In this document: in pieces, positions 43,657 to 55,168 of the stretch
How the letters are laid out: every line of letters starts with the position of its first letter
Position numbering within the stretch: position 1 is the first letter of the stretch
Origin: Escherichia phage vB_EcoM_IME537
Length of the DNA: 64,000 nt
Sequence record: NC_054921.1
Direction: 5' to 3' (one strand)
The notes under the pieces: generated by a model
What the model was told of the DNA's origin: nothing
What the model saw: only the letters and a program-made list of their open reading frames with translations
The model's database searches: none
Position numbers and translations under genes: made by a program

Positions 43657-45244
<1,588 letters not shown>

Positions 45245-45252
45245 AATAAAAT

Positions 45253-45266
45253 GGGCCTTGCGGCCC
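45253..45266 (-). terminator. Hairpin GGGCC-GCAA-GGCCC between nrdB and denA
   Basis: 5-bp stem, GNRA loop. Confidence 0.4.
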
Positions 45267-45271
45267 ACTCC

Positions 45272-46441
45272 TTAAAAATATTTTTTAAAACTCATCATAA
45301 CTTTATCATCAACATCATTATCAATCTGTGCTACAAGGTAAGATGACAGTTCTACTTCTTGCGGCGCGGATTGAACATTATCAGAATTAAGGTATTCACG
45401 AATCCAAGGATACGGATGTTTAACCGGAGCATCGGTAATTGGGCATGGAAGACCGCACTGTTTCATACGAGATACAGTTAAGTAATCAATAAAGCTCCAC
45501 ATGCTATTTGTATTTAATCCAGGAACATCGCCATCTTTAAATAAATGAACTGCCCAGTCTTTTTCTTGGCGGTTAACTTCCATGAAAATATCAACTGCTT
45601 CTTGTTCACACTCTTGAGCAATTTTAACCCATTCATCACCATCAGTGCCAAGTTGAAGTTGACGAATAATATATTGGGTGCCTTTAAGATGAAGCTGCTC
45701 ATCACGCGCAATGAACTTCATAATCTTGGCATTACCTTCCATGATTTCCATGTTCTTATGGAAGTTAAAGGTACATGCGAAAGATACGTAAAAACGAATA
45801 GCTTCCAATGCATTGATTACATGCAAGCAGAGGTAAAGAGATTTCATTAATGCTCGTTTAGTACATTCAACAACTTTGCCTAACTCTTCTTTACGAAATC
45901 CTTCTGATAAAATTCCTTCATAATCTTCAACCGCGTTTTGGTATTCACGAGTCTTAACTAGAACATCATCGTAATAGCGACCAATGGACTCGGCACGTTT
46001 CATAATAGCTTTATCTAATACAATCTCATCAAATACCTTTGATGGGTCAGTATAAAGATTTCGCATGATATGAGTATATGAACGACTGTGAATAGTTTCA
46101 CTAAAAGTCCATGTAGCAACCCATGTATCAAGACTTGGATCTGAAATTAATGACATAAGTACTGCAGACGGTGCACGACCCTGAATGCTATCTAGAAGTG
46201 ATTGATACTTCAGGTTATTAGTAAAAATATCTTGCTGATACTGAGGAAGCTTGTTAAATTGTGCAGCATCCATCATTAAGTTTACTTCTTCAGGACGCCA
46301 GAAAAATGATAAAGATTTCTCTGTAAGTTCTTCAAATACTCGATGCCGTTGAATATCATAACGCGCAATACCAAGACCTGAACCAAAAAACATAGGTTCT
46401 TTTAAAACATCAACTGGATTTGTATTAAAAACTGTAGACAT
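45272..46441 (-). CDS. nrdB: Ribonucleotide reductase small subunit NrdB, intronless
   Basis: 389 aa from ATG 46441 (MSTVFNTNP...); single continuous ORF. Confidence 0.93.
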   Translation of the reverse strand: MSTVFNTNPVDVLKEPMFFGSGLGIARYDIQRHRVFEELTEKSLSFFWRPEEVNLMMDAAQFNKLPQYQQDIFTNNLKYQSLLDSIQGRAPSAVLMSLISDPSLDTWVATWTFSETIHSRSYTHIMRNLYTDPSKVFDEIVLDKAIMKRAESIGRYYDDVLVKTREYQNAVEDYEGILSEGFRKEELGKVVECTKRALMKSLYLCLHVINALEAIRFYVSFACTFNFHKNMEIMEGNAKIMKFIARDEQLHLKGTQYIIRQLQLGTDGDEWVKIAQECEQEAVDIFMEVNRQEKDWAVHLFKDGDVPGLNTNSMWSFIDYLTVSRMKQCGLPCPITDAPVKHPYPWIREYLNSDNVQSAPQEVELSSYLVAQIDNDVDDKVMMSFKKYF

Positions 46442-47172
46442 TAATTTTTCCTCTTTAAAATTCTGCCGTGTTTCCAACCTGGCGGTATAATATCATCTTT
46501 ACCTATAAGCGTGCATTCACTTCCATTATTAATCCATTTCTTACCGCGGATTCCTTTATAATCTCTTGGTTTTATTTTGTCAAACTTTGCATCAAGTTGA
46601 TATGACCATCTAAATCCATAAGCATATTGAAATTTACCCTCGGCACAATATTTGATATTTGACCCGTTTCCATTAACTGACCGGGACGCTGCCGCAATAG
46701 AGTGAAAGGTTTCTATGAAATCCCCATCTAATGAGAATTTATGTATTTCTACAGATGGGCACGCATATCTATTCACGTTAGATACATGCTGTTTAGTTTC
46801 GTTTTTATGATGCTTGCCTAGCATCCCTTTAGGATGAGGATTATTTTTCCAATATTTCTTAAAGAACTCAGAATTAGCTTTAGCAAATAATTTTCTGTGT
46901 AAGCTGTACAATCTGTTATTAATTCTATTGCCAGCTTTATCTGTTGCCATTAACGTTAACGCAGAGGCAAGACCAAAATGGCCTTCATTTATCTTACATA
47001 GTAATAGATGAGCTATAAAATGTTCTCTGGCTGTTAATTCAACTAAATTTTCCTTATCATCAGAACCTCCCATACATTTAGGGATTATATGATGTGTCTC
47101 TTTATATTCTAGTAAAGATTCCCGAGCCTGAGCTCGGGAAATTAGGTCGTTATAGATTTTTTGATAATTCAT
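46441..47172 (-). mobile_element. mobE: Free-standing HNH homing endonuclease (mobE position between nrdA and nrdB)
   Basis: 243 aa; HNH motif ETHHIIPKCMGGSDDKENLVELTAREHFIAH; TAATG overlaps at both ends. Confidence 0.8.
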
Positions 47173-48161
47173 TACAATTTACACGCTGCGCAATCATCGG
47201 CTTTTGGAGTTTCTATTTCATAATCATCAGTACCGGAACCATCACGAGTATTATGATAATAGAAGTTTTTAATGCCATAATACCATCCGTATAGCATGTC
47301 ATCAATCATTACAGACATTGGAACTTTTCCTTTTGGAAAAATCTGCGGGTCATAATATGTATTTGCTGAAGCTGATTGACATACCCATTTCAGCATAATA
47401 GCTACTTGCGTAAGATAAGGTTTATTACCTTTTTTAGCTAATTTCCACGTATAATCATACAGGTCTATGTTATGCTCAATATTGGGCACGACTTGATTAA
47501 AGGAGCCCTCTTTTGATTCTTTAACAGAGACTGGTCCACGTGGAGGCTCGATACCGTTTGTACTGTTAGAAACTTGGGAAGATGACTCACATGGCATAAG
47601 TGCTGATAATGTGCTATTACGGATGCCAAAGAGCTTAAGGTCTTCCCGCAGCGACGACCAGTCACAAACGTATTTTGGAGCTGCGATTTGGTCAATCTTT
47701 TTATTGTACCAGTCGATAGGTAATTCGCCTCGAGACCAACGGGTGTCTGAATAATATTCGCAAGGTCCTTTTTCTTTGGCGAGCTTAATGGATGCTTTAA
47801 TGAGTCCATACTGTAATCTCTCAAATAGTTCATGTGTTAAATCGTTAGCATCTTCATAAGAAGCAAAATTACTTGCCAGCCAAGCTGCATAGTTAGTAAC
47901 ACCTACGCCAAGGTTTCGACGCTTTTTAGCTTTTTCTGCTTCAGGAACTGGATATCCTTGGTAATCCAAAAGATTATCAAGAGCACGAACTTGGACTTCT
48001 GCCAATTCATTAATTTTATCTTGGTCTTGCCAATCGAAGTTATCTAACACAAATGCAGATAACGTGCAGAGGCCCACTTCACCTTTGTTTTCAATAACTT
48101 GTATTGTTGTATACTCATCATCTTCGTAAAATTCATCTACAAATTCATAATCAATATTCAT
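47172..48161 (-). CDS. nrdA: NrdA C-terminal piece (carries GLCTLSAF and the C-terminal YY...CAAC tail)
   Basis: 329 aa; begins with a 23-aa acidic non-conserved head, then the conserved class I large-subunit sequence. Confidence 0.88.
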   Translation of the reverse strand: MNIDYEFVDEFYEDDEYTTIQVIENKGEVGLCTLSAFVLDNFDWQDQDKINELAEVQVRALDNLLDYQGYPVPEAEKAKKRRNLGVGVTNYAAWLASNFASYEDANDLTHELFERLQYGLIKASIKLAKEKGPCEYYSDTRWSRGELPIDWYNKKIDQIAAPKYVCDWSSLREDLKLFGIRNSTLSALMPCESSSQVSNSTNGIEPPRGPVSVKESKEGSFNQVVPNIEHNIDLYDYTWKLAKKGNKPYLTQVAIMLKWVCQSASANTYYDPQIFPKGKVPMSVMIDDMLYGWYYGIKNFYYHNTRDGSGTDDYEIETPKADDCAACKL

Positions 48162-48861
48162 TTAATTCTTCTACCTTTTTTCGAGATATTCCTAGAGCTT
48201 TAGATGCTCGATGTATTGATTGATATTCTATACCGTTTATTTTTACAGCAATTAAGTTATGGGGTTTTAATCCCTTTGGATGAGGTTTACTGACGTATTC
48301 TTGATTATCGTTTTCAGAGATATTATCAAGCTTTCGACACTTAAAGCCTTTATGTTGAGACCTTTTGCCTTTGCATACGGCCGACATTGCCGAAGCATTG
48401 AGTGAATGTAGTTCGCAAAATTCTCTTAGGCCTTTATGGATTTCTTCATGACCGTCCGGGAAAGTAAATACCCAAGTTGTTTGAAGTTTTTCTCTATGCT
48501 CGTCAGTTACCGGAATACCTTTGTTCCAAGCTGGTTTGCCTTTATTATTTTCAGATACAGAAATAGCCAATTTTCTTCTAAGCCACCCATGGCGTTTATT
48601 GGTGTTCTTTCGTTCAATATTATCTTCAGAATAAACACACATCATATTAGCGGCAAATACCAATTTATGATTATCTGGATATATCTTTACTAATAATTGA
48701 TGAGCTATGTAATGCTCTTCGGGTGTCAAATCTACCAGGTTTTCCTTTGTATCAGAACCACCAATACACAGAGGTATAATATGGTGTGATTCGGTATAGC
48801 AATCTAATTTTCTGTTCTTAGCTTTAGAAATAAGGTTATTGTAAATTTTAGAATAATCCAT
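48151..48861 (-). mobile_element. Second HNH homing endonuclease (mobE paralogue) inserted inside nrdA
   Basis: 236 aa; HNH motif ESHHIIPLCIGGSDTKENLVDLTPEEHYIAH; own RBS AAGAGGAAAA; C-terminal HTH-like RASKALGISRKKVEEL. Confidence 0.85.
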
Positions 48862-48906
48862 AACTTTTCCTCTTGTTATGGATTATTTATTAACGGTCTG
48901 TGTACT

Positions 48907-50340
48907 TTATTTGCTTTGAATTATACCGCCAGGATTAGCTTCATAAAACTTAGCTACATCCGACTTCTTAATTTTGATTAAACGGGTTTGTTGGCTATTG
49001 ACATCATTAGTTGGAATAGCAATTTCACAACACAAGTTGCTCTGACGAATAGGTGCCTTTTCGCGAATAAACGGAGTATAGTTATTCGTATTATCAATGA
49101 ACTGCACATAAATCCTTGCTGTTCCTGATCGTTCAGTCATGAGCAATTCAAACAGTTCACGGGCTTTAATACGCTTTTTACGAATATTAGGGTCTTTTTC
49201 TGCGGCTTCATATAATTCACGGAAACGGTCTTGGTCTTTAAAATAAGAATAATAAAGCTCGCCACCCATTTCGTGTGGACTGAACAAAGTAATGTAGTCG
49301 TTCTTTCCGAATCGTTCCATCATTAGGTCATTCAGCTGGACACCATAATCCATATGGCGGATACGGTTTTCTTCTACACCTTTGTTATTTTTCAAAACGA
49401 GAAGATTTTCAACTTCCAAATGCCAAATAGGATAATAAGCAGTAGCAGCACCGCCACGAATTCCGCCCTGTGAACATGATTTAACAGCAGTCTGAAAATG
49501 TTTCCAAAAAGGAATAACACCAGTATGGCGTACTTCACCTGTGCCAATCTTAGAACCTTCGGCACGAATCATACCAACGTTAATGCCGATTCCAGCTCGC
49601 TTGGAGATATATTCAACAATTGAAGCAGAAGCTTTGTTGATAGACTTCAGCGAATCACCTGCCTCAATAACAACGCATGAACTAAACTGTCGAGTTGGAG
49701 TACGACATCCAGCCATAATAGGAGTTGGCAATGAAATCTGTCGAGTGGATACTGCTTCATAAAAACGGATAACGTGTTTTAATCTATCAACAGGTTCATC
49801 TTGATGCAATGCCATTCCAATAGTCATAAACGCAAACTGTGGAGTTTCATAAATTTGACCAGTGGTTTTATCTTTAACGAGATATTTTTCTTTTAATTGC
49901 ATCGCCCCGGAATAAGTAAATTCCATATCCCGCTCATGCTTAATTTTTGATTCTAAAAATGTAATTTCTTCTGCTGAATATTTTGACAGCAGTTCAGGGT
50001 CATATTTACCTTCATTTACACAGTAAGAAATATGGTCAATAAATGAACATGGTTCATATTGCCCGTAAACATGCTTACGAAGAGCAAACATTAAACACCG
50101 TGCAGCTACATATTGATAATCAGGCTCTTCAACTGAAATAGAATTCGCAGCAGCCTTAATGACAATAGTCTGAATGTCATCAGTTGTCATTCCATCACGG
50201 AGATATGATTTAATATTTTCATATAATTCATAAGGATCTACAGATGTTCCTTCAGCTGCCCAAGATAAAACTTTAATAATTTTTTGCGGGTCAAAGCTTT
50301 GAGAAACACCACTACTTTTGATAACATTAATTAATTGCAT
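48907..50340 (-). CDS. nrdA: NrdA N-terminal piece (carries the active-site SNLCCEIAIP)
   Basis: 477 aa; MQLINVIKSSGVSQSF...; conserved sequence ends at ...IPTNDVN followed by a 29-aa basic tail and stop. Confidence 0.88.
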   Translation of the reverse strand: MQLINVIKSSGVSQSFDPQKIIKVLSWAAEGTSVDPYELYENIKSYLRDGMTTDDIQTIVIKAAANSISVEEPDYQYVAARCLMFALRKHVYGQYEPCSFIDHISYCVNEGKYDPELLSKYSAEEITFLESKIKHERDMEFTYSGAMQLKEKYLVKDKTTGQIYETPQFAFMTIGMALHQDEPVDRLKHVIRFYEAVSTRQISLPTPIMAGCRTPTRQFSSCVVIEAGDSLKSINKASASIVEYISKRAGIGINVGMIRAEGSKIGTGEVRHTGVIPFWKHFQTAVKSCSQGGIRGGAATAYYPIWHLEVENLLVLKNNKGVEENRIRHMDYGVQLNDLMMERFGKNDYITLFSPHEMGGELYYSYFKDQDRFRELYEAAEKDPNIRKKRIKARELFELLMTERSGTARIYVQFIDNTNNYTPFIREKAPIRQSNLCCEIAIPTNDVNSQQTRLIKIKKSDVAKFYEANPGGIIQSK

Positions 50341-50612
50341 AAGTCCTCAACTTGAAAATCGTCTTTAAACAATCGGTTAACTATATGAGCTATTATATCA
50401 CCATGACACGGCTTTGGTTTACATGTGCATCCTAGCCTCATTCCACGTAAAGGCTCTAAATGTGCTTTAGTTATTTCTCCGGATTTAATTCGACGTATAA
50501 AATCTTTTTTGAATAATTCAATGGCAGCCTCCCGGCTGCCAGCATCTTTACCGACGTAATTTCCCCAAAATGTACCACGGTGAATATTAACATCAAAGTC
50601 GGATTTATATTT
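50331..50612 (-). pseudogene. Conserved-looking ORF region (...GTFWGNY...LGCTCKPKPCHGD...) with no in-frame start; apparently disrupted
   Basis: 93 sense codons directly after the in-frame TAA of the upstream 87-aa ORF; the only nearby ATG (50659) is in another frame across an A5 tract. Confidence 0.5.
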
Positions 50613-50876
50613 TTATTCACTACTTGGCATAGACGGCCCGCGCGGTGATAATTCGTCATATTGTTTTTCCGTTAAAACAGTAATATCATAGTAACAATCA
50701 GAAGAAGTTTTAACCGTAGAAATTTTATTATCAAAATACTCACGAGTCATTTTATGAGTATAATATTTTTTGCCATAAATGATAATAGGCTGATTTGGTC
50801 CTGGAACTTCTAACTCGCTTGGGTTAGGAAGTGTAAAAAGAACTACACCAGAAGTATCTTTAAATCGTAAAATCAT
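50613..50876 (-). CDS. Hypothetical protein (nrdA.x position), in frame with the downstream disrupted region
   Basis: 87 aa ORF. Confidence 0.5.
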
Positions 50877-50899
50877 ATATCCTCACAATTAATAATTAA

Positions 50900-51759
50900 T
50901 TACACCGCCATTTTTCCTTTAATAGGAGGGTGTGATTCGTAACCTTTAAGAACGAAATCTTTAGGCCTGAGTTTAAGAACATATTCCAATTGTTCTTTAG
51001 TAGAAAGATAGCGGAATTTATAAGGCAATCCGCCTATTACCAGTTCACAAAGCTCTTTAGGTTCACGACGTAAAATTTCTTTACACTGTTCTATGTGATT
51101 CATATAGATATGAGTATTACCACCAGAAAATATCAAATCTCCTGGAATAAGATTACACATCTTAGCTACAATATGAACTAATGCAGCATATGATGCAATG
51201 TTGAATGGCAAGCCCAAGAACACGTCAACACTTCTTTGATACCACTGCAAATCCAAATAGCCATTACGCACATTAAACTGATAAAACATATGACAAGGTG
51301 GTAATGCCATATGTTTAAGTTCAGCTGGATTCCATGCTGAAACAATTTGACGCCTATCATTCGGCAGTTTTTTAATACGATCAATAACTTCTACAATTTG
51401 GTCTACACCGCCAAAATCACGCCACTGTTTTCCATAAATTGGACCAAGTTCACCACTATGATATCCTAAATCTTTTGCTTGATTTTCGTAATTTTCATCC
51501 CAGACTGTTTTGCCTTGAATTAATGAATCATGCTGAATTAATCGTAAATCATTTACGTTAGTACTTCCTGACAAAAACCATATTAGCTCAGCAATACAAG
51601 CTTTCCAGGCGAGCTTCTTAGTCGTTACTGCAGGAAAACCTTTAGTTAAATCCCAGCGTAATTTAGTACCGAACAAAGCAATTGTTCCTGTGCCTGTTCG
51701 GTCATCGGTTTCATAACCGTTTTCCAGGATATCTTTAATTAAAAATTGGTATTGTTTCA

Positions 51760-51760
<1 letters not shown>
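50900..51760 (-). CDS. td: Thymidylate synthase, intronless
   Basis: 286 aa from ATG 51760 (MKQYQFLIKD...); active-site PPCH; continuous ORF. Confidence 0.95.
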
Positions 51761-52792
<1,032 letters not shown>

Positions 52793-52803
52793 ATTATCTC
52801 CTA

Positions 52804-53136
52804 TTAAAAAGGATCAGGAACATATCCACTAGCTTTAATCATTTTAACTAATGTTACCATTCCTTTGTTAACTGCTTGTGAGATTTCATCAAAAACTTCA
52901 TCATTAAAAAGTTCTAGCACACCCTTCTGAACTTTTAATTTACAGCCAACAATTTCGTCATCGCCTATAGTAAATTCATTACCGCCAATTCCACCGAAAA
53001 ACTTAATTACCCCAGTTAACTGTCTTCCACGAGAATATGGGTCATGTGATAAAGTAATATGAGTCACCCCAGGTACAGTTTTAAATTGGCAGCGAATGTT
53101 TACTTGGGAAATTCCAGTTACATGAACGTCAGACAT
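52804..53136 (-). CDS. Hypothetical protein (frd.2 position)
   Basis: 110 aa. Confidence 0.6.
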   Translation of the reverse strand: MSDVHVTGISQVNIRCQFKTVPGVTHITLSHDPYSRGRQLTGVIKFFGGIGGNEFTIGDDEIVGCKLKVQKGVLELFNDEVFDEISQAVNKGMVTLVKMIKASGYVPDPF

Positions 53137-53959: not shown

Positions 53960-54190
53960 TTATTGTTCAATCAGTCCCATGTAAAATTCTGCATCTTCAG
54001 CATCCATACCATCACAGTATTCATTAGCCATAAATCGTTCAAGAACTTCTAAAGGACCTTCAATAACAATAGAAAAATTGCAATAATTGGGATCATCATG
54101 AATACTTGTGATACTAAGTTCAGGATAACGATTACGAATAATTTCTTCAATATATTCAAAATCAACGATGTCAATATCAACTTTAGCCAT
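53960..54190 (-). CDS. 76-aa acidic protein with its own RBS (AGAGGA), in frame with the gene 32 readthrough
   Basis: ATG at 54190..54188; [16 protein letters not shown]... Confidence 0.5.
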
Positions 54191-55168
54191 ATTGTTTTCC
54201 TCTTTAATCATCAGCAGTATTGCCGATAGTTGTATAGTACCATAGTCCTTGTTGTATGTAAACCGTTTTGTGAAAAAAAAAAATGGGTCCGTGTCATCAG
54301 CACTAGATGAACTGCCAGAGCTTGAGCTCATAAAATCATCTTCAGTTTTTGTTTTGAAGTCATCAACATTAAATGCATCCAAATCATCAGCAACTTTATC
54401 AGCTTTCTTAGCGGCAGTTGCTGCGGCACCGCCCATAGCAGCAGTTCCCATAACTTGACTGAACTTAGTGCTCAGTTCTTCAAACGATTTGAATTTATCT
54501 TTAGAAGTCATTTCAGAAAGGTCAACCATTTGTTCGAACAGTTCTTTCTGGAAAGATTCATCATCAATGTTTGGAATCGCAGATTGATTCAGGAATTTAG
54601 ATTCGTCGTAGTTACTAAAACCAGAAACTTGTTTAACTTTCAGTACAAAGTTAGCACCTTCCCACGGACAAGTTACATCAACCGGAGTTTCACCCATTTC
54701 AACATCAACTGCAATCATTGCATTGATTTTATCCCAGATTTTCTTACCGAAACGGTATTTAAATACTTTACCTTCATTTTCTGGAGCAGCTGGGTCTTTT
54801 ACAACAAGAATGTTAGCCCAGTAAGAAGTTTTACGTTTAACAAGACCGTACTCTTTATTGTCAGTGTTATACAAATCATTTTTACTGATGTACTGACATA
54901 CTGGGCAAGAATCGTAATCACCGTGGGTAGATGAACAGTTTTCAATATACCATTTACCATTTTTCTTGAAACCGTGATTTACAAGAATTGCGAATGGTGC
55001 TTGTTCATCATTTTTAGACGGAAGAAAACGAATTACTGCTTGACCGTTACCCGCATTGTCGAGTTTCAGTTTCCACTCGCCTTTATCTTCAGAAGAAAAA
55101 CCACCTTTATTTCCAGCCAGTTTAGCCATTTGCGCAGCGAGTTCAGCAGTAGATTTACGTTTAAACAT
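53960..55168 (-). CDS. 32: ssDNA-binding protein gp32 as read (402-aa ORF; conserved gp32 ends near 54287, after which there is no stop and the frame runs through a T11 tract into the 76-aa ORF)
   Basis: first ~294 aa match gp32 (zinc ligands H64, C77, C87, C90; ...[14 protein letters not shown]); 3' boundary unresolved. Confidence 0.85.

Follow-up and report, generated by a model that had tools for sequence, protein, structure and literature searches.

What becomes of an enzyme whose gene is broken, close to its active site, by a gene for something else? The question is raised by nrdA of Escherichia phage vB_EcoM_IME537 (sequence record NC_054921.1), which we analysed in a stretch of 64,000 nucleotides (nt), called the window below. 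Three - strand open reading frames (ORFs) lie within 47172..50340, both in the ORF list and in the sequence itself. A reading made from the letters alone (the sequence-only reading) had taken the outer two for the halves of a class Ia ribonucleotide reductase (RNR) large subunit and the middle one for an HNH endonuclease gene. Exactly these three ORFs were found, Pfam and alignments to the Escherichia coli R1 protein agree with the assignment, and nrdA is confirmed to be a class Ia RNR large-subunit gene encoded as two pieces around a mobile endonuclease gene. In the direction of transcription the ORFs are:

48907..50340, - strand: NrdA N piece (NrdA-a), 477 amino acids (aa)
48151..48861, - strand: HNH ORF (mobE-split), 236 aa
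47172..48161, - strand: NrdA C piece (NrdA-b), 329 aa

The HNH gene has a ribosome-binding site (RBS) of its own, as that reading had it: AAGAGG sits 7 nt 5' of its ATG, which follows the N-piece stop at a distance of 45 nt. The C-piece ATG is placed 11 nt inside the 3' end of the HNH ORF, giving an 11-nt overlap.

The N piece matches the Pfam families ATP-cone, Ribonuc_red_lgN and Ribonuc_red_lgC, with the domains above their cut-offs, and the Ribonuc_red_lgC barrel profile is shared out between the two pieces, N-piece aa 220-446 taking up profile positions 1-221 and C-piece aa 24-303 positions 219-523. Alignment to E. coli R1 likewise places N-piece aa 5-450 on residues 6-455 and C-piece aa 23-328 on residues 453-760. 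By both comparisons (the Pfam profile splits at position ~220) the break falls between the equivalents of C439 and C462, where the sequence-only reading had put it. On the N piece C222 corresponds to C225 of R1, and N435, C437 and E439 correspond to N437, C439 and E441; on the C piece C32 corresponds to C462, and the tyrosine pair (Y730/Y731) and the C-terminal cysteine pair are also present. All class Ia NrdA catalytic residues are aligned and conserved relative to R1, spread over two chains. When the two pieces are joined end to end, the resulting protein is, outside the tails described below, 99% identical over aligned positions to intact 754-aa T4-type NrdA proteins, and a protein search with it returns only near-identical intact proteins of this type. 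The NrdA cores are delimited as follows:

48994..50340, - strand: nrdA-a core, comprising the ATP-cone, the all-alpha domain and the first half of the RNR barrel, and ending ...SNLCCEIAIPTNDVNS
47172..48068, - strand: nrdA-b core, comprising the second half of the barrel, from C32 (= C462) through the C-terminal YY and CxxC

The ends of the inserted cassette were defined by alignment to the intact nrdA of phage vB_EcoM_G2540-3. A 925-nt segment, 48069..48993, stands in place of 21 nt, the P-D-A-E-I-G-L codons just before C462, and the flanks are 97% identical. Around the cassette site the intact T4 nrdA reads ...AATGATGTGAATAGT on the upstream side and, directly following, CCTGATGCTGAAATTGGATTGTGC... 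on the downstream side. The cassette contains, in order, 28 codons and a stop, a 45-nt spacer, the HNH gene, 26 head codons and a few recoded host codons; its parts other than the HNH gene are:

48907..48993, - strand: basic tail at the NrdA-a C-terminus, QQTRLIKIKKSDVAKFYEANPGGIIQSK, 28 aa and a stop codon; marks the 5' end of the cassette
48862..48906, - strand: spacer of 45 nt, with a late-promoter-like box and the endonuclease RBS
48084..48161, - strand: acidic N-terminal head of NrdA-b, MNIDYEFVDEFYEDDEYTTIQVIENK, 26 aa, starting inside the 3' end of mobE-split
48069..48083, - strand: recoded copy of the host codons before C462, GEVGL for AEIGL; the 3' end of the cassette

Neither the tail nor the head has a counterpart in intact nrdA. 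The NrdA-a tail region reads ...KSDVAKFYEANPGGIIQSK, with a net charge of +4 and an isoelectric point (pI) of 10.0, and the NrdA-b head region reads MNIDYEFVDEFYEDDEY..., with a net charge of -8 and a pI of 4.1. The recoded codons (A/G-E-I/V-G-L-C) have 5 differences in 18 nt, between flanks that are ~97% identical, and the Cys codon itself (48066..48068) is unchanged.

A break of this kind is known from Aeromonas phage Aeh1; the nrdA-a/mobE/nrdA-b arrangement of that phage was reportedly described earlier by Friedrich et al. in PNAS in 2007. The sequence-only reading had equated the two split positions, and comparison of the loci bears it out. In Aeh1, nrdA-A (473 aa) and mobE (237 aa) are 46 nt apart, and mobE overlaps nrdA-B (323 aa) by 14 nt; in the window the three products have 477, 236 and 329 aa, with a 45-nt gap and an 11-nt overlap, and the break point, between the C439 and C462 equivalents, is the same. 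The comparison with the Aeh1 proteins which that reading had proposed gave a full-length match between the HNH protein of the window (MobE-split) and Aeh1 MobE, at 48% identity over 229 aa (E = 3e-61). When 50,697 phage records were searched with Aeh1 MobE by tblastn, the split-nrdA coliphages were its only close full-length relatives (44-48% identity), and the next tier, at 31% identity, adjoined uvsW; Aeh1 MobE and the coliphage MobE-split set are mutual closest full-length relatives among GenBank phages. The tails are homologous as well: in the N tail ...KMLFKVKKSEVDKF... of Aeh1 aligns with ...TRLIKIKKSDVAKF... of the window, in the C head ...YEVYEDEEYTTVEI... aligns with ...DEFYEDDEYTTIQV..., and to the pI values of 10.0 and 4.1 in the window correspond 10.4 and 3.8 in Aeh1 (PMC3045599). 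In both loci a hairpin is found where mobE translation starts, together with a late-promoter-like box.

The two loci are not alike in every respect. The distal halves of the tails differ (…YEANPGGIIQSK in the window, …KLMVATDQYKSLRY in Aeh1), and the hairpin of the window buries the AUG and has the Shine-Dalgarno (SD) sequence in its loop, whereas that of Aeh1 buries the SD. The backbone of the window is that of a Tequatrovirus (E. coli/Shigella T4 type) and Aeh1 is a Cinqassovirus; finally, a canonical mobE separates nrdA-b from nrdB in the window but not in Aeh1. Judged by these alignments, the cassette of the window is the same element as the Aeh1 nrdA-a/mobE/nrdA-b, homologous to it part for part and not merely alike in position.

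In 2010 the authors of the Aeh1 study stated that the tails had no database match at the time (PMC3045599). The relatives now at hand define a motif for each. The N-tail motif x-L-[IVF]-K-[IV]-[KR]-K-x-[DE]-[VI]-x-x-F is kept in Aeh1 and 8 metagenome relatives, and the C-head motif ...ED[DE]EYTT[ILV][EQ][IV]... is kept in all relatives. In 14 of 14 loci the N tails have a net charge of +4 to +7 and the C heads one of -7 to -13; all 14 loci keep the stop codon of the N piece and the ATG of the C piece, and every locus has an SD-like sequence 5' of that ATG. Selection was analysed on the 30 best-aligned tail codons. Their synonymous sites are near saturation (proportion of synonymous differences, pS, 0.6-0.84), the proportion of nonsynonymous differences, pN, is 0.06-0.25, and the ratio of the two rates, dN/dS, is 0.02-0.11 where dS could be estimated. 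Because of this low dN/dS and the conserved stop, ATG and SD, we read the tails as translated, functional peptides and not as intron RNA or junk; by this measure they are under strong purifying selection at the protein level. A census of head-bearing C pieces, made with short queries, gave 1 match in a word-index search and 2 in an exhaustive HMMER search.

MobE-split is predicted, from its sequence and from a structural model, to be a free-standing HNH homing endonuclease of the I-HmuI-like modular type. Its HH...N...H motif (H26-H27...N41...H50) is invariant or nearly so in 61 homologues. In Pfam it matches I-HmuI_NUMOD-like at 32.2 bits, against a cut-off of 27, and it has weak matches to HNH, NUMOD1 and I-TevI DNA-binding, those to HNH and NUMOD1 lying below their cut-offs. 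An AlphaFold model built on a 61-sequence alignment has a predicted local distance difference test score (pLDDT) of 91.7, and its one significant match in the PDB is I-HmuI (1u3e, E = 9e-5). Two candidate control elements lie at the start of the gene:

48852..48887, - strand: RNA hairpin of 13 base pairs (minimum-free-energy fold), with the SD in the loop and the mobE-split AUG in the 3' arm
~48884..48891, - strand: late-promoter-like box, TAATAAAT, in the spacer and overlapped by the 5' arm of the hairpin

Across 5 divergent variants 98.4% of the cells of the hairpin are paired, and 3 pairs have compensatory changes; in slid controls 25-44% are paired. The box reads TATAAATA in the related loci L013 and L019, and near variants of it, AATAAATA and GATAAATA, are found in L014, L018 and L020. 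A scan for sigma-70 promoters gave counts no higher than chance. For I-TevI and Aeh1 mobE, the start of the endonuclease gene is masked in the read-through transcripts made early, and late transcripts begin within the hairpin and are translated (PMC2988022; PMC2677866). By analogy, the mobE-split start would be occluded by a hairpin that is linked to a candidate late promoter, and we infer its regulation from those systems.

The same 3.2-kilobase (kb) arrangement is present at 82-97% identity in 31 GenBank phage records; counted by MobE-split, there are 33 records, which represent ~27 distinct phages. The isolates with a split nrdA are Tequatrovirus species and the Mosigvirus AV111, and their records carry the annotation of two RNR alpha coding sequences and a homing endonuclease. 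In a collection of 5.8 billion proteins the full-length MobE-split homologues, at 51-89% identity, form 12 clusters, and all of the metagenomic homologues that were looked up (8 of 8, at 51-67% identity) are flanked by an NrdA N piece on one side and a C piece on the other, and these pieces have the same tails. A scan of IMG/VR with the MobE alignment gave Aeh1 itself as the sole full-length match. One metagenome locus, L019:1607-3451 (contig ERZ14207129 NODE_16), is peculiar in that its N piece, of 614 aa, contains a mini-intein (…DILVHN/CLEIAIP) directly before the C439-equivalent Cys and 13 residues upstream of the MobE-split tail, so that a single gene has both an intein and a gene-splitting cassette in its active-site region.

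Whether the cassette travels can be judged from a segment-by-segment comparison with AV111. Its nrdA core is 76.9% (N core) and 78.9% (C core) identical to that of the window, while the N tail is 99.0%, the spacer 97.8%, and MobE and the C head both 100% identical. Along the gene, the 5-10 mismatches per 30 nt give way to none from gene coordinate ~1320 to ~2260, the two ends of the cassette, and the recoded stretch 48069..48083 falls inside the segment that is ~100% common to the two phages. Because it is 98-100% identical in AV111 while the nrdA core is 77-79% identical, the cassette moves as a unit; on this evidence it is, tails included, a recent exchange between diverged nrdA backgrounds, a pattern that is the signature expected of homing.

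The relation is the opposite in phages fPS-2 and 236Ecol005PP, whose cores are 95-97% identical to the window but whose MobE is only 88-89% identical, with the differences concentrated in MobE aa ~118-197, the region with the NUMOD-like DNA-binding module. At the nucleotide level this region, window 48271..48510, is a mosaic block in fPS-2, PTE-Eco05 and 236Ecol005PP, most of it having 5-15 mismatches per 30 nt, against 0-1 in the rest of the MobE gene. The block suggests module swapping or a changed target specificity.

We consider it highly probable that nrdA of the window is an Aeh1-type gene in pieces, in which the 925-nt mobile cassette has taken the place of 21 nt from the loop that connects the C439- and C462-bearing barrel strands. 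The anatomy, the homology to Aeh1, the selection on the tails and the lateral movement of the cassette were obtained directly, and the working mechanism is drawn from Aeh1. In that phage the holoenzyme has normal specific activity, the tail peptides are detected in the mature proteins, NrdA-a and NrdA-b purify as separate chains, and deletion of the tails lowers activity ~2000-fold (946 versus 0.4 U/mg) because the (a/b)2 large subunit then forms poorly (PMC3045599). By analogy, NrdA-a and NrdA-b of the window would associate as a heterodimer in which the active site is rebuilt from C222 and C437 of one chain and C32 of the other, and the oppositely charged tails would be needed to form an active (a/b)2 large subunit able to bind NrdB2. 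Two polypeptides that assemble via their tails into an active reductase are, on this analogy, the most likely mechanism. The hairpin would keep the endonuclease silent early, with late synthesis from transcripts that start inside its 5' arm, and MobE-split would cut the cassette-free nrdA alleles of co-infecting phages, whereupon repair would copy the whole cassette in.

Several points weigh against this reading. For expression, the unspliced state, the complex and its activity the argument relies throughout on a homologue with ~48% identity in its cassette proteins, and cleavage of intact nrdA by MobE-split is a prediction. The box of the window, TAATAAAT, differs from the consensus TATAAATA at one base. 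The control for the Rfam search used below is partly clean, in that the td intron was reported in L001:414-644 and, in the same search, not in L026, which has the opposite orientation. Finally, T4 can do without nrdA in laboratory culture, and a broken copy might therefore survive for some time.

The last point touches on the possibility that the insertion killed nrdA, and that the ORFs are remnants in a phage that relies on host or anaerobic (NrdD) nucleotide reduction; the viability of T4 nrdA mutants in the laboratory favours it. We nevertheless regard it as very unlikely, since ~27 isolates and 8 divergent metagenome loci (~35), whose cassettes differ by up to ~50%, keep both ORFs intact, all catalytic residues are kept, and the cores are 99% identical to intact NrdA. 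The tails of a dead gene would be junk, yet their dN/dS is 0.02-0.11, and the Aeh1 version is fully active (PMC3045599).

If the cassette were instead a group I intron, its removal from the transcript would leave an uninterrupted nrdA mRNA, with the pieces as exons. In T4-type phages td, nrdB and nrdD do contain group I introns, and some of these have endonuclease ORFs (PMC2988022); the relative G2540-3 has a td intron that is detected by Rfam. By eye, one can always pick a 5' exon ending in U and an intron ending in G that preserve the frame, and simple splice rules do not decide the matter. The Rfam model Intron_gpI, however, has no match in 44000..53000 at E <= 10 and none at the gathering score across the whole window, and the same search found the td intron control (L001, 40.2 bits, E = 1e-7). 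This negative weighs less than the coding evidence because the td intron was missed in L026. An intron would have only ~130 nt upstream and ~80 nt downstream of the ORF, both of them conserved as protein, with saturated synonymous change, and not as RNA, and the N-piece stop and the C-piece SD and ATG are kept in the 14 loci; in Aeh1, moreover, the mature proteins retain the tail peptides and the two chains purify separately (PMC3045599). With the Intron_gpI model unmatched and the tail regions evolving as protein, we reject a group I intron as highly improbable. The discrepancy between the td introns of L001 and L026 counsels caution with Rfam negatives for introns that contain ORFs.

Protein splicing could also make the break harmless: the tails might be the halves of a split or degenerate intein, and trans-splicing would join the pieces into an ordinary NrdA chain, the route taken by the 'fractured genes' known from marine phages. 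The topology of those genes is the same (N piece with extension, free-standing endonuclease, overlapping extension with C piece; PMC2677866), split-intein halves dock electrostatically too, Crona et al. raised such an origin as a possibility (PMC3045599), and the intein of L019, 13 residues upstream, means that inteins do target nrdA. But the tails, at 28 and 26 aa, are far below the length of an intein half; the first tail residue is Gln and not Cys or Ser, His-Asn is absent before the junction, and it is Leu that precedes C32. The Pfam intein/HINT models match neither the pieces (E <= 1) nor the concatenated tails of 7 variants (E <= 10), whereas the intein of L019 was detected as a control at 4.6e-13. 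Known split inteins of NrdA sit at another position, directly before the C439 equivalent (PMC2677866), and NrdA-a and NrdA-b of Aeh1 stay separate chains with their tails on (PMC3045599). An intein, split or otherwise, lacks both the HINT signal and the motif residues here, and we reject it too as having very little chance of being correct.

A sequencing or assembly artefact of the window can be dismissed as next to impossible, in spite of one suspicious defect elsewhere in it (~75 nt missing at the end of gene 32), since 31 independent GenBank records, the work of several laboratories, have the 3.2-kb arrangement too (82-97% identity).

An intein might still figure in the ancestry of the Aeh1-type cassette. 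It is conceivable, though improbable, that the cassette is the relic of a split intein invaded by an HNH gene, which has lost its splicing chemistry and kept the electrostatic docking of its halves, now required; no supporting motif for an intein ancestry was found in the tails, which are very short peptides. If this were true, the cassette would be a third 'harmless' intervening sequence beside introns and inteins, one that repairs its host via quaternary structure and spreads between phage genera.

Other systems resemble the split nrdA of the window in part. The MobA element of the T4 topoisomerase genes 39/60 is a related Mob-family HNH gene within an essential gene (bioRxiv 10.1101/2022.08.31.505936; PMC3045599), with extensions on the upstream C-terminus and the downstream N-terminus and with host codons swapped for its own homologous copy. 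It differs in its target gene, in extensions of ~44 aa that are unrelated in sequence, and in a translational bypass cassette, to which the window has nothing comparable. The fractured genes of Dassa et al. (2009, PMC2677866) share with the window the order of N piece, endonuclease and overlapping C piece, a hairpin and TATAAATA box upstream of the endonuclease, and the electrostatic docking of the extensions. They differ in that they are genuine split inteins that ligate their halves, that their endonucleases are GIY-YIG or Vsr-like, and that their NrdA site is directly before the C439 equivalent; the window lacks intein motifs, and the chains of its Aeh1 homologue stay separate.

Among the closest known systems, with a cassette that is practically the same, are the HY01-type Tequatrovirus and Mosigvirus phages with a split nrdA, namely HY01, PEC04, SH-1/2, UFV-AREG1, fPS-2, fPS-90, vB_EcoM_112, F2, AV111 and others. 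MobE-split of the window is 100% identical to that of HY01, PEC04 and AV111, and the tails are identical. The HY01-type records lack a canonical mobE, however, and in PEC04 nrdB starts 51 nt after nrdA-b, whereas the sequence-only reading had rightly placed a second HNH gene in the canonical mobE slot of the window:

46441..47172, - strand: canonical T4-type mobE, 243 aa, in the nrdA/nrdB slot and outside the split cassette

The start of this gene overlaps the nrdA-b stop as TAATGA. For T4 mobE such an overlap with the nrdA stop and an internal terminator have been described (PMC2988022), and the window has a terminator-like hairpin at 47119..47140 (- strand), inside the 5' coding end of the canonical mobE: TTCCCGAGC-TCAG-GCTCGGGAA, then a T-rich tail. 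The canonical MobE resembles MobE-split or Aeh1 MobE over its N-terminal ~100 aa only. Its gene is 100% identical to one in phages G50, IsaacDaniel and Ec_O157kw, and SH7 and IsaacDaniel, the closest listed relatives of G50, encode intact 754-aa NrdA. A canonical mobE is present in 112 of ~820 related records and absent from 31 of 31 GenBank split-nrdA records; in the metagenome loci L014, L016 and L019 the slot is occupied by a gene. The rarity of mobE and cassette together could be due to chance, shared ancestry or some incompatibility.

The novelty implied by the sequence-only reading was overrated, since the Aeh1 arrangement has been characterised biochemically (PMC3045599) and ~27 coliphages are annotated as having it; 'MobE_split' insertions are also mentioned in passing in a 2022 preprint (bioRxiv 10.1101/2022.08.31.505936). 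The kind is already known from Aeh1 (2007, 2010) and from coliphages, and the particular feature of the window is its combination of an HY01-type cassette and a canonical mobE, both of which no other GenBank record in the collection has. The comparisons of tail selection and cassette exchange add modestly to published work, and the split nrdA overturns nothing. The split reductase of Aeh1 is the textbook case of a homing endonuclease that breaks an essential gene and yet is harmless through a protein 'glue' of its own, and the present comparisons indicate that the tails form a conserved family, strongly selected as protein, that travels with the endonuclease as one cassette across phage genera. 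In T4-type coliphages the system comes with near-identical cassette-free relatives (97% identical flanks) and a genetically tractable host, in which homing crosses, tail mutagenesis and structural work would be much easier than in Aeromonas phage Aeh1.

The defect mentioned above concerns gene 32 (single-stranded-DNA-binding protein), whose ORF, 53960..55168 (- strand), has 402 aa instead of ~301. At a junction at ~54283..54300 the window is missing ~75 nt that 493 related phages have, comprising the last 8 codons (LDDLLNDL), the stop codon and the terminator stem, and the ORF therefore continues in frame into the downstream Frd.3-like gene. The gap may reflect a true deletion, or else a misassembly at a hairpin/T-run. 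Elsewhere in the window td (50900..51772) and nrdB (45272..46477) are continuous and without group I introns; in the close relative G2540-3 td has an intron with I-TevI and nrdB is annotated as split.

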